A stretch of 64,000 nt of DNA from Escherichia coli (GTDB lineage: Bacteria; Pseudomonadota; Gammaproteobacteria; Enterobacterales; Enterobacteriaceae), in the NCBI RefSeq assembly GCF_013315695.1, contig NZ_CP054355.1, one strand, 5' to 3'. Within the stretch, counting starts at the first letter, position 1, and every line of letters begins with the position of its first letter. This document shows, piece after piece, positions 15,687 to 17,588 of this stretch. The notes beneath the pieces were generated by a model. That model made no database searches and had not been told where the DNA came from. It was given only the letters and a program-made list of their open reading frames with translations. Made by a program: the position numbers and the translations under genes.

Positions 15687-15814
15687 AGGAGCACCTCCGT
15701 TCCATGATGTAAACGTGACACAGCTTATTGTTATTGATTATTATTATCATGCTGTGGTTATGTTGTCATGCATCAGTACACTGACAAAAGTGCAAAAGAA
15801 AGGAAAACTGGCAG

Positions 15815-16150
15815 ATGAACAGAAAATATTATTTTAATAATATGTGGTGGGGATGGGTGACGGGGGGATATATGCTGTATATGTCATGGGATTATGATTT
15901 TAAATACAGATTACTGTTCTGGTGTATTTCTCTCTGCGGAATGGTTTTGTATCCGGTTGCAAAATGGTATATTGAAGATACAGCTCTGAAATTTACCCGG
16001 CCTGATTTCTGGAACAGCGGTTTTTTTACTGATACACCTGGAAAAATGGGATTGCTTGCTGTTTATACGGGTACTGTTTTCATATTATCTCTTCCGTTAA
16101 GTATGATATATATTCTTTCTGTTATTATAAAAAGGCTGTCTGTAAGATAG
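15815..16150 (+). CDS. Colicin E1-type (pore-forming colicin) immunity protein homolog, orphan
   Basis: 111 aa; NRKYYFNNMWWG / VLYPVAKWYIEDTALKFTRPDFWN / C-terminal hydrophobic helix parallel ImmE1 (SLRYYIKNILFG / [24 protein letters not shown]); no colicin gene nearby. Confidence 0.55.
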   Translation: MNRKYYFNNMWWGWVTGGYMLYMSWDYDFKYRLLFWCISLCGMVLYPVAKWYIEDTALKFTRPDFWNSGFFTDTPGKMGLLAVYTGTVFILSLPLSMIYILSVIIKRLSVR

Positions 16151-16173
16151 ACAGCCTGTCTTATATTTTATTT
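16134..16173. terminator. Hairpin ggctgtct-N7-agacagcc followed by T-rich tract; candidate intrinsic terminator
   Basis: Read directly; stem overlaps the immunity gene stop codon; could act for both convergent genes. Confidence 0.5.
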
Positions 16174-16377
16174 AAATACCCCAGAACTTATGCCACAAGA
16201 ATTATCTAAAAGTTGCCGTTCTACTCCGTTAGTTTGTAGTTCTATCATAGTCTTATTAACTCGATCACGAGGTCTGTATGACGGGGAAGCTTGCGCTGTA
16301 AGATTATATGATAATGCACATATTGTAATGATAGTTGTTTTTATCTTTGTGTTTAATGTGAAAATTTTATAAAGCAT
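16168..16377 (-). CDS. Small ORF (69 aa) with N-terminal signal-peptide-like segment ending AQA, about 39-aa hydrophilic mature part
   Basis: ORF track; N-terminal basic-hydrophobic-AXA pattern; AT-rich; function unknown. Confidence 0.3.
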   Translation of the reverse strand: MLYKIFTLNTKIKTTIITICALSYNLTAQASPSYRPRDRVNKTMIELQTNGVERQLLDNSCGISSGVFK

Positions 16378-16409
16378 ATAATGTTCCCTATTTTTATTTT
16401 GTTTATAAT

Positions 16410-16580
16410 TTATTGGTTGTATGTTAAATCTATCATAAGTCTAATGATTAAAATGGTTAGTGGTGTCAGGATTAGTGAAAATAAAGGATGTAATATGCTA
16501 TTCTTTCTCTGTAAGTACTTGAGAATACTAAACCATAGTACAAGAATGATTATGTACATGTAGTGAGAATTGGAAAACAT
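16410..16580 (-). CDS. Small two-TM membrane protein, paralog P0 (56 aa)
   Basis: Manual translation MFSNSHYMYIIILVLWFSILKYLQRKNSILHPLFSLILTPLTILIIRLMIDLTYNQ; GGGAAG upstream of ATG; below ORF-track cutoff; weaker similarity to P1/P2. Confidence 0.25.
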   Translation of the reverse strand: MFSNSHYMYIIILVLWFSILKYLQRKNSILHPLFSLILTPLTILIIRLMIDLTYNQ

Positions 16581-16658
16581 AGTTTCTTCCCGTGTTAATG
16601 AGAGTATGTGTTTTTATGTGGGGATATGTACACCCCATATAGATGTATTATGTTATAT

Positions 16659-16835
16659 TTATAATATACCTCGGCAAAATAAAAGGATTGTTATAGAAAT
16701 AGGGAAGGCTATAAAAAAGCTTATATTAAGGTCTGTTTTCTTCTTAGAAAAATAATTCTTTGCTCTAATTATTATAGATGTAATCCCCCAAACAATAAAA
16801 AGAATGGAGCTGCTTGTAATTATTTGATATATCAA
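16659..16835 (-). CDS. Small two-TM membrane protein, paralog P1 (about 58 aa, probable TTG start)
   Basis: Manual translation ...ILIYQIITSSSILFIVWGITSIIIRAKNYFSKKKTDLNISFFIAFPISITILLFCRGIL aligns with P2; AGGA upstream of TTG; no in-frame ATG. Confidence 0.35.
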   Translation of the reverse strand: MIYQIITSSSILFIVWGITSIIIRAKNYFSKKKTDLNISFFIAFPISITILLFCRGIL

Positions 16836-16962
16836 AATTGTTTTCCTCTATTTTTGTGTAGATAGATGTTAATGGCACTGGGTGCATTTATTCGTAATTT
16901 CTTTTTCCATGCTGGGCCAGCAGGAGCATTTGAACAGAAACTTGATTAATCATGAAAACACA

Positions 16963-17169
16963 TCACTTATCGAAGAAAAAAATATAAACTAACAGAATAA
17001 CTATAGATGCAGGGAAAGCTAAGAATAAGCTTATAGCTGGGGCTGTTTTTTTGTTGAATTTCCAGTTTGTGACTCTGATTATTACAGCTATAGTCATCCA
17101 GACTATAATTAAAATAGAACTGCCATTGATAAAATCATATTTCAAAATAAATTCTCCTGTATTTGTCAC
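16963..17169 (-). CDS. Small two-TM membrane protein, paralog P2 (61-68 aa)
   Basis: ORF track 68 aa; ...ILKYDFINGSSILIIVWMTIAVIIRVTNWKFNKKTAPAISLFLAFPASIVILLVYIFFFDK; AGGAG upstream of internal TTG. Confidence 0.4.
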   Translation of the reverse strand: MTNTGEFILKYDFINGSSILIIVWMTIAVIIRVTNWKFNKKTAPAISLFLAFPASIVILLVYIFFFDK

Positions 17170-17588
17170 TCAATCGGTGGTTTATGTGACTATATTCGCA
17201 AAAACTGGTCGCAGAAAAGTCCTGTTTTCAGCTTGGAAACCCGGTAATCAGAATAATGGATAGGGGAACAAAAATCTCTGTATAGAACGCTCCATTGAGG
17301 GAGAGAAAACGTGTCATTTTGACCCGTTCGGTATTCAGAACACACAAAACCGATCGCGCATCGCTTTCGTGCATAGTTATGCAACGCGCTAAAAACGATT
17401 CTGACGCATTTTTCTGGTTCAGCCTGTGTTTCCTTGTCTTTTTGCGTTTTTTGCGTCAGAAAGCGACTGAGGGCGTTTTAAGGGGTACGTACAACGGGAG
17501 TTATGGTAAATGGATCGGTTTTTCGGGAAGGATCGACAGGATTTGCCGTTGGGTGTAGTGTAAGCGACTGAAAAACAAACGCCCCTGA

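Follow-up and report, generated by a model that had tools for sequence, protein, structure and literature searches.

We have analyzed a stretch of 64,000 nucleotides (nt) of Escherichia coli plasmid DNA (NZ_CP054355.1, hereafter the window, to which all coordinates refer), and specifically an AT-rich block that carries a colicin immunity gene on the plus strand and, converging on it from the minus strand, three small membrane protein genes and the stub of a peptidase gene. The GC fraction drops to 0.28–0.33 over ~16050–17250, with flanks at 0.52–0.67 on the left and 0.52–0.55 on the right; the core of the block (16192–17163) has 30.1% GC and the window as a whole 50.4%. Around the block the window corresponds gene for gene to pUTI89, with iia, a rep pseudogene, cjrABC and senB at identical coordinates. 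A first-pass annotation had pointed out the AT-rich block amid higher-GC DNA, the four minus-strand open reading frames (ORFs) converging on an immunity ORF, and the absence from the block of a colicin activity gene, a lysis gene and an exporter. The GC profile, the ORF list and the existing annotation (searched over 15.3–18.3 kb for the lysis gene) agree with all of this; to our knowledge, colicin Ia (ColIa) loci natively lack a lysis gene. The same annotation had taken the block for one cassette, a cryptic bacteriocin module, whereas our comparisons place a junction of two unrelated loci at 16189–16191, and both candidate toxin genes, the colicin Ia activity gene cia and a gene for a protein of 203 amino acids (aa), have been deleted. 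The block could at most confer immunity.

The plus-strand gene (15815..16150, 111 aa) is intact. Its product, WP_001080732.1 in the Prokaryotic Genome Annotation Pipeline (PGAP), matches Pfam PF03526, 'Colicin E1 (microcin) immunity protein' (E=4e-7, residues 44–79), and no NCBIfam hidden Markov model. To call this ORF a colicin E1-type immunity homolog was correct but too cautious, since 109 of its 111 residues (98%) are identical to WP_001080734.1, encoded beside cia on an IncI1 ColIa plasmid, which makes it the colicin Ia immunity gene itself, iia; the two differing residues are E28D and A72T. Iia is an inner-membrane protein that blocks the channel domain of colicin Ia. In a simple hydropathy scan the version in the window showed clear stretches at residues 31–49 and 78–106, and an N-terminal aromatic-rich segment that fell under the threshold. 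The DNA of iia, including the 115 nt upstream (15700–15814), is 99.3% identical to ColIa plasmids, and the similarity to a ColIa plasmid extends over 15077–16191 at 98.9%, covering a DUF6404 gene and part of an upstream hypothetical gene; the ColIa plasmid has equivalents of both hypothetical genes on the left, in the same positions. A promoter-like site (GTGACA-18-TATTAT, 15715..15744, plus strand, 10/12 in a consensus scan) is located upstream and would be the promoter of iia. Overlapping the iia stop codon, a hairpin found by strand scan and folding (16133..16157) folds on both strands, with free energies of −18.2 and −17.9 kcal/mol and z-scores of −4.7 and −4.6. The bidirectional terminator proposed before is thus real on both strands, but it is not specific to any cassette: its sequence is identical in the ColIa plasmid L003 and, because the ColIa match runs through it into the 3' end of cia, it is the native terminator of the convergent immunity and cia genes.

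What is left of cia is the stop codon and 17 nt (20 nt, 16172..16191, minus strand), the remaining 1,861 nt of its 626 codons being missing. Identity to L003 runs up to 16191, beyond which the two sequences are unrelated, and the first 32 nt of a query spanning 16160–17300 matched the cia 3' end in hundreds of plasmids. Compared with the cia-iia locus of ColIa/ColV-type plasmids, the window keeps iia, its upstream region, the hairpin and the left flank at 98.9–99.3% identity, in a convergent layout that is native there, and differs by the loss of cia and the two changed residues of Iia; compared with a complete colicin operon, it has neither activity gene nor lysis gene. Because the native upstream region, an intact ORF and the terminator have all been kept, iia is most likely expressed and protective against colicin Ia, sparing the host the cost of making the colicin. 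With cia reduced to 20 nt, the locus could therefore only protect and not kill. The orphan pore-former immunity gene proposed by the first-pass annotation is accordingly there, with its cia partner gone. This part of the story is already known: pUTI89-like plasmids have been called 'ColIa/senB' and a 'colicin immunity system ColIa' has been mentioned (PMC11748317, PMC13108677), and many E. coli plasmids keep orphan immunity genes next to a toxin gene with one and the same severe truncation (PMC12546727). The case of iia is alike in having the immunity gene beside a heavily truncated toxin gene, and its cia truncation is common to hundreds of plasmids of various sizes and hosts. In the literature searched we found no direct test of colicin Ia immunity for pUTI89. 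What the window adds to these orphan immunity plasmids and to the 'ColIa/senB' label is a three-gene array derived from Col156 plasmids and a peptidase stub.

The stub is the minus-strand ORF closest to iia (16168..16377, 69 aa), previously read as a gene for a secreted peptide with a signal sequence. Frame analysis and full-length homologs tell otherwise. Codons 1–63 (16189–16377) come from the 5' end of a gene for a C39 peptidase with a signal peptide, including the catalytic-Cys motif NSCG, and the ORF is a chimeric pseudo-ORF because its last six codons and the stop are ColIa DNA, the 3' remnant of cia, read out of frame. The full-length homologs have 213–218 aa, match PF03412 and contain the complete domain with its Cys and His. 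The ORF equals the first 63–64 residues of the 213-aa C39 protein of a Col156/MOBQ plasmid, to just past NSCG; the region of the catalytic His (GGHFVVY, around residue 145 in L006) has been deleted from the window and the C39 domain is incomplete. The supposed secreted peptide is therefore the dead stub of a 218-aa peptidase gene with a foreign end.

Next to it on the minus strand are three intact ORFs for proteins with two transmembrane (TM) segments, here B (16410..16580, 56 aa), A' (16659..16835, 58 aa, with a TTG start 8 nt after GAGG) and A (16963..17145, 60 aa, with a TTG start 8 nt after AGGAG at 17154–17158). B and A' are left without annotation by PGAP, and CP029771 annotates A as hypothetical. 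In each protein two hydrophobic stretches are split by a Lys/Asn-rich loop, and sequences resembling a ribosome-binding site precede all three ORFs. The three small two-TM genes of the first-pass annotation are thus real, except that the leftmost of them starts at the TTG at 17145 (60 aa) and not at the GTG at 17169, because 17164–17169 lie past a deletion junction. A is identical at 58 of 60 residues to its counterparts in the Col156-type plasmids L006 and L013. A' is a paralog of A (52% aa identity) and a homolog of a gene of a Salmonella plasmid (56% aa identity, with a ratio of non-synonymous to synonymous change, dN/dS, of 0.34); its start is ATG in the intact plasmid L006 and TTG in the window. 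B was supported by its conserved position and by a dN/dS of 0.15 against the 76%-identical copy in pSCU-387-3. For A-type pairs the values were 0.2–0.45, and overall they ranged from 0.15 to 0.45 between copies 52–76% identical in nucleotides. In every copy of the parent locus examined, whether on a plasmid of E. coli or Salmonella, a Serratia chromosome or a metagenome contig, a gene for ~200 aa and the peptidase gene are separated by one or more small two-TM ORFs; B has a homolog at the same position in all of them except L020 and L027, which have an A-type gene only. At the level of the family, sequence comparison indicates that the small ORFs are real genes under purifying selection across their relatives.

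The family is formed by 18 clusters among 5.8 billion proteins, all labelled hypothetical, and the small proteins match no Pfam, NCBIfam, PHROG or PADLOC family. Actually, when all four libraries were scanned with the ORFs of the window and the proteins of the parent locus, only PF03526 (iia) and the C39 domain were matched, so that the earlier remark that these components do not correspond to a described colicin or microcin operon holds also for the two large proteins of the parent. Some GenBank records call antisense frames of B (16381–16563, plus strand) and of the stub (16190–16372, plus strand) hypothetical proteins; the conservation pattern favors the minus-strand frames.

We have traced the AT-rich part to small Col156-type plasmids. 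Apart from its near-identical copies, a low-stringency search with the core retrieved a single plasmid (6.2 kb, Col156/MOBQ), 73% identical over a match that lies under a 'C39 domain-containing protein', and the family recovered with the full-length peptidase as query led to L006 and to the circular 6,640-bp plasmid NZ_LR898878.1. Both are 96.4% identical to the window over 16189–17163. The first-pass annotation had compared the layout with the low-GC cassette of a small Col plasmid and had suggested looking for the block in such plasmids; the comparison proved right, as the core is the cargo of a MOBQ plasmid with a Col156/ColE2-like rep, now found inside a larger plasmid. A three-way comparison of the window, L003 and L013 located the illegitimate-recombination junction at 16189..16191, where the cia stub is joined to codon 63 of the peptidase through a TAT microhomology. 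The other end of the cargo is a deletion junction (17163..17164), established by BLAST map and junction sequences, at which bases 4597–6231 of L013 (1,635 bp), that is, the 203-aa gene, a gene for 291 aa and their upstream region, are missing. Beyond it, 17164..17600 (plus strand) is Col156/ColE2-type backbone from upstream of rep, 93–95% identical to L005, L006 and L013, followed by a dead fragment of a ColE2/Col156-type replicase gene (17601..18244, plus strand). This rep (PF03090) has lost both ends: ~185–190 bp at ~17600 including the start codon (185 bp in the alignment to L004), ~39 codons, and the 3' part beyond 18244|18245. Both fragments, rep and its upstream region, are 91–96% identical to Col156 plasmids, and the alignments to L004 and L013 and the PGAP pseudogene call bear out the disrupted rep gene noticed earlier beside the block. 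In the whole Col156-derived segment (16189–18244) only A, A' and B are intact.

These data suggest the following history. An IncF plasmid of the pUTI89 ('ColIa/senB') type would once have held a normal ColIa locus, with two hypothetical genes, the DUF6404 gene and, on either side of the hairpin terminator that they share, iia and cia. A Col156-type plasmid, small, mobilizable and loaded with AT-rich cargo, would then have been fused into this locus by illegitimate recombination at the 3-nt microhomology. The fusion and later deletions would have removed cia, two thirds of the C39 peptidase gene, the two large cargo genes, the mob region and both ends of rep, leaving intact iia and the three small two-TM genes together with the dead peptidase stub and the dead rep. 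We consider it highly probable that the block is such a recombination scar of two unrelated loci (ColIa up to 16191, Col156 cargo from 16189), with the interpretation of the parent module discussed below attached to it. A candidate for its free-living ancestor, NZ_CP030334.1 (L004, 7,588 bp, linear), joins the DUF6404 gene, iia and the AT-rich block to an intact Col156 rep-mob backbone; it was discarded as its ends repeat the rep-upstream region and its identity to the window drops after ~17360, at the switch to the true Col156 backbone, and it is probably an assembly chimera.

In NZ_LR898878.1 and L006 the cargo is complete, with genes for 291 aa, 203 aa, A (60 aa), A' (58 aa), B (56 aa) and a 218-aa C39 peptidase on one strand. 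The 291-aa protein has a signal peptide and is predicted to be all-beta, the 203-aa protein has a signal peptide, and the peptidase has a signal-like N-terminus. The same arrangement (~290 aa, ~200 aa, one to three small two-TM genes, ~200-aa C39 peptidase) recurs in E. coli Col156 plasmids, Salmonella plasmids, Serratia chromosomes and metagenome contigs, and its GC content is 35–42% in every host, even with Serratia flanks at 55%. In the mobilizable plasmids of 6.2–6.6 kb it is the sole cargo; a Col156 plasmid carrying a colicin E1 operon as cargo has been described before (PMC6920910). The module is rare. Of 5,426 complete E. coli genomes, 2 have both of its large genes in full and 4 others have parts of them, the 203-aa gene is present in 2 of 72,556 PLSDB plasmids, and tblastn of the 203-aa protein and of protein A in PLSDB revealed no other plasmid family. 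The peptidase aligns to the LahT double-glycine protease domain, Cys and His regions included. Neither the 291-aa nor the 203-aa protein matches Pfam or NCBIfam; a profile built from the 291-aa family retrieved nothing from the PDB, even at E<=10, and the PDB profile search with the 203-aa family gave only noise. AlphaFold2 models from shallow alignments had a predicted local distance difference test (pLDDT) of 43.5 for the 203-aa protein and 28.4 for the 291-aa protein. The latter is labelled hypothetical in other records, and in NZ_OZ546928.1 and NZ_OZ546914.1 one feature under the match to the large genes, which may be this protein, is annotated as 'TonB-dependent receptor'.

Three parts make up the 203-aa protein: the pro-region is conserved, the body varies and consists of three hydrophobic helices rich in Gly and Ala, and the C-terminal domain has CxxCH at its end. 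Comparing the versions of two E. coli plasmids, identity is 100% in the signal and 90% in the pro-region, but falls to 44% in the hydrophobic body and 59% in the C-terminal domain. Across nine loci the invariant motif QxM..(D/E)E...T.GKAIP, the three long hydrophobic helices and the conserved C-terminal domain were maintained. We found no relatives of it outside the module, the search of 1.84 billion representatives having given three clusters, one of them spurious (a eukaryotic repeat protein). The invariant C-x-x-C-H makes up the last five residues of the protein (gene at 4588–5199 of L006, and homologs); this is the motif of c-type haem attachment and might equally be a metal or disulfide site.

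The hydrophobic bodies fall into three types, and the first small gene downstream follows them. Type T2 (L006, L020, L026 and L027) is followed by an A-type gene, type T1 (L005, L007 and L018) by a B-type gene, and type T3 (L010 and L015, both from Serratia) by a short B'-type gene. The number of small genes varies from one to three: L013, L006 and L026 have A and then A' and B, and L027, with the same T2 variant of the 203-aa protein, has A as its only small gene. In the parent plasmids that match the window, A directly follows the 203-aa gene. By analogy, a first small gene that tracks the hydrophobic body is what polymorphic toxins show when the cognate immunity gene lies directly downstream and orphan ones come after it.

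Following this analogy, the 203-aa protein would be a membrane-active toxin that is exported by Sec and that the signal-peptide C39 peptidase matures once it has reached the periplasm, and the beta-rich, outer-membrane-like 291-aa protein would release it. The small two-TM proteins would provide immunity, the cognate one being encoded directly downstream of the toxin gene and the extra orphans behind. That the parent module is a secreted membrane-active toxin with small membrane immunity proteins we rate at about even odds, the chief alternative being an envelope or surface system of the Fap/Fil kind. A, A' and B would on the toxin reading probably be immunity genes of this rare, uncharacterised secreted-toxin module, of which the window would keep a three-gene orphan immunity array. 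A more demanding version, with A, A' and B as working orphan immunity against an undescribed Sec-exported bacteriocin of ~180 aa, with a swappable three-helix hydrophobic body, matured by C39 and released through a dedicated outer-membrane protein, is tentative and on the doubtful side. The literature searched, also by accession, contained no description of the Col156-derived array and peptidase stub, which are unannotated in RefSeq; the array and the parent module are undescribed.

Several observations weigh against a toxin and immunity function, or against its operating in the window. The covariation rests on nine loci and is confounded by linkage. Because the pLDDT values are low, the labels of outer-membrane barrel and toxin come from composition and secondary structure only, and no known family connects the 203-aa protein with killing, or the small proteins with protection, the profile libraries being negative. 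The upstream region of the module has been deleted along with the two large partner genes, and a consensus scan found no good sigma-70 match upstream of A on the minus strand; the small genes may be silent. Between the window and L013 the changes in A and A' are mostly non-synonymous (2:0 and 5:1, too few for an informative dN/dS), and the start of A' went from ATG to TTG. The intact ORFs of ~480 plasmid copies say little on selection because the copies are ~99.9% identical by descent, and variants with an IS1 insertion or an internal deletion exist.

Much of this fits the strongest alternative, in which the scar holds and only iia matters, the three small genes being silent, functionless passengers that have not had time to decay. 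We regard it as a serious possibility, slightly less than evenly balanced. It has to accommodate that the three ORFs stayed intact over the 3.6% divergence between window and parent plasmid, with both indel events in the 255 intergenic nt and none in the 720 coding nt, a suggestive but weak point, and that the block has been kept on different backbones and in Klebsiella, Salmonella and Shigella. There is also one isolate whose companion small plasmid lacks A' and B and resides alongside a remnant that supplies both. In this blood isolate, AF3, plasmid 2 (L001, NZ_OZ547118.1) has the remnant with A, A' and B in a block 100% identical to the window, and plasmid 3 (L027, NZ_OZ547119.1, 6,228 bp) has an intact T2 module without A' and B; it could be trans-complementation or coincidence.

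A second alternative concerns the parent module, which may be a small envelope system similar to Fap or Fil (a surface fibre, an adhesin or a membrane complex) and no bacteriocin. The two-TM proteins would then be assembly or anchoring partners of the periplasmic C39 peptidase, and useless leftovers in the window. In the Fap system of Pseudomonas the periplasmic C39 peptidase FapD and the outer-membrane channel FapF are both required for export of Sec-delivered substrates (PMC5557850). The parent module shares this logic of Sec export, periplasmic C39 and outer-membrane channel: a stand-alone signal-peptide C39 without ABC-transporter (ATP-binding cassette) domain, Sec-dependent substrates and a beta-rich signal-peptide protein. 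Among protein families the peptidase comes closest to FilB ('putative pilus system C39 peptidase', 1.5e-16) and FapD (1.3e-8), the B-type gene is directly upstream of the peptidase gene in most loci, and in the 203-aa protein the third helix is immediately followed by Lys/Arg-rich residues, which suit a resident inner-membrane topology. However, these scores are far under the NCBIfam cut-offs (60.6 versus 475 bits for FilB, 34.4 versus 330 for FapD), so that the peptidase falls in neither family. The other Fap/Fil components have no detectable counterparts, amyloid-type repeats are absent, and the 291-aa protein has no similarity to any solved structure (FapF included, if it was in the copy searched). 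Besides, the module has small two-TM genes, which vary in number and track the variable hydrophobic body, with B missing from L020 and L027, and it travels as the sole cargo of 6-kb mobilizable Col plasmids. We know of no small two-TM genes in Fap operons. In the window the peptidase is moreover truncated before its catalytic His. Altogether, we find a system of this kind rather unlikely.

The original view of a self-contained cryptic bacteriocin cassette, in which a secreted peptide ORF is paired with its own E1-type immunity gene, is understandable from the convergent layout, the shared terminator, the low GC and the small membrane proteins, but it is very improbable now that the two halves prove to be of separate origin, joined at 16189–16191, the immunity gene is iia with its partner cia deleted, and the 69-aa ORF consists of what remains of a 218-aa peptidase gene, its 5' end, and of foreign DNA read out of frame. 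Chance open frames in horizontally acquired DNA, which would explain why PGAP leaves the small ORFs unannotated in AT-rich DNA full of short ORFs on both strands, are still less credible, given that position, strand and length are kept down to 52% nucleotide identity with dN/dS well below 1, each ORF has its ribosome-binding-like sequence, and other pipelines call the ORFs in several records.

Returning to the toxin reading of the module, it can also be compared with the class II microcin clusters, with which it shares a low-GC island, small membrane immunity-like proteins, a C39-family peptidase and carriage by plasmids. It differs from them in having no precursor with a double-glycine leader (no TIGR01847-type match in the block or in the parent module) and no gene for an ABC transporter or a membrane fusion protein in any module copy, the C39 peptidase being a stand-alone protein of 213–218 aa. 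Also different are the predicted periplasmic location of the parent peptidase and the size and route of the candidate toxin, ~180 aa after signal cleavage and Sec-dependent. Two module copies have bacteriocin genes nearby. In L026 (pN51a, NZ_JBUBMP010000002.1, a 152-kb plasmid from a cerebrospinal fluid isolate) a gene for a class IIb ('E492 group') microcin whose C-terminus is rich in Ser and another for a 106-aa membrane protein (7007–7632) sit between a Col156 rep fragment and the intact module copy, with no exporter nearby. In L008, a Salmonella contig, a cloacin/pyocin-S-type colicin gene (1–1199) is located ~2.4 kb upstream of the module copy, beside a Tn3-family transposon.

We also compared the block, by description only, with the colicin Js cassette of pColJs. 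This is reportedly a low-GC insert of ~1.2 kb in a small Col plasmid, with the small genes cja, cji and cjl, the immunity gene convergent on the activity gene, and products said to have 94, 129 and 65 aa. These gene sizes do not fit the block. The receptor genes cjrBC are 1.3 kb to the right of it: cjrA (ChaN-like), cjrB (TonB-like), cjrC (TonB-dependent receptor) and senB occupy 18620–23953 of the window, beginning 330 bp to the right of where the dead rep fragment ends. Colicins Js and Z are taken up through CjrBC (PMC6668396). A bacteriocin-receptor operon thus adjoins two bacteriocin-locus remnants, and we found no sequence link between them.

The 1.6-kb block is 99.9–100% identical in 467 plasmid records (coverage >=80%), and the remnant is present in 449 of the 5,426 complete E. 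coli genomes, nearly always borne by plasmids. It is found also on other plasmid backbones and in Klebsiella, Salmonella and Shigella. One example is the non-IncF conjugative plasmid pPIMR of Klebsiella michiganensis (L002, CP029771.1, IncI-type/MOBP), which has iia, the remnant and cjrABC at 99.2% identity over 3.9 kb, indicating that the whole composite moves between backbones as a unit. Two decayed versions were seen: in a Shigella sonnei contig (L023, 381–638) a deletion fuses the A'-B intergenic frame to B in a chimeric ORF of 85 aa, and in NZ_CP098220.1 (41181–43098) IS1 is inserted within the AT-rich core. NZ_OZ547118.1, identical to the window over the block, has colicin E1-like and microcin B17 operons; when mapped, they were absent from the window, which diverges beyond ~25 kb. 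An Rfam scan of 15–19 kb gave no match.

Our analysis corrects the annotation of a piece of DNA that is very common in plasmids of extraintestinal pathogenic E. coli (ExPEC), such as pUTI89 and pRS218, and that occurs in ~8% of complete E. coli genomes. What is annotated as 'colicin E1 family microcin immunity protein' is colicin Ia immunity without the colicin, and the adjoining 1 kb, blank in RefSeq, contains three real genes and a peptidase pseudogene. The Col156 'replicon' is here a dead fragment that replicon typing may pick up; MOB-suite gives a ColE2-like rep cluster to some large plasmids with the block. The scar leads to an uncharacterised module of four to six genes with a periplasmic C39 peptidase, similar to toxin–immunity systems in organisation and covariation, and with a secretion logic so far shown only for the Fap amyloid; if true, it would add a class of bacteriocin, found on rare 6-kb Col156 plasmids and in islands of Serratia and Salmonella. 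It would also be the second case on the same plasmid of immunity kept without its toxin, which bears on whether orphan immunity is selected or left over. In that case ~8% of completely sequenced E. coli, for the most part ExPEC harboring pUTI89-like plasmids, would come equipped with immunity to a toxin that hardly any of them produce.

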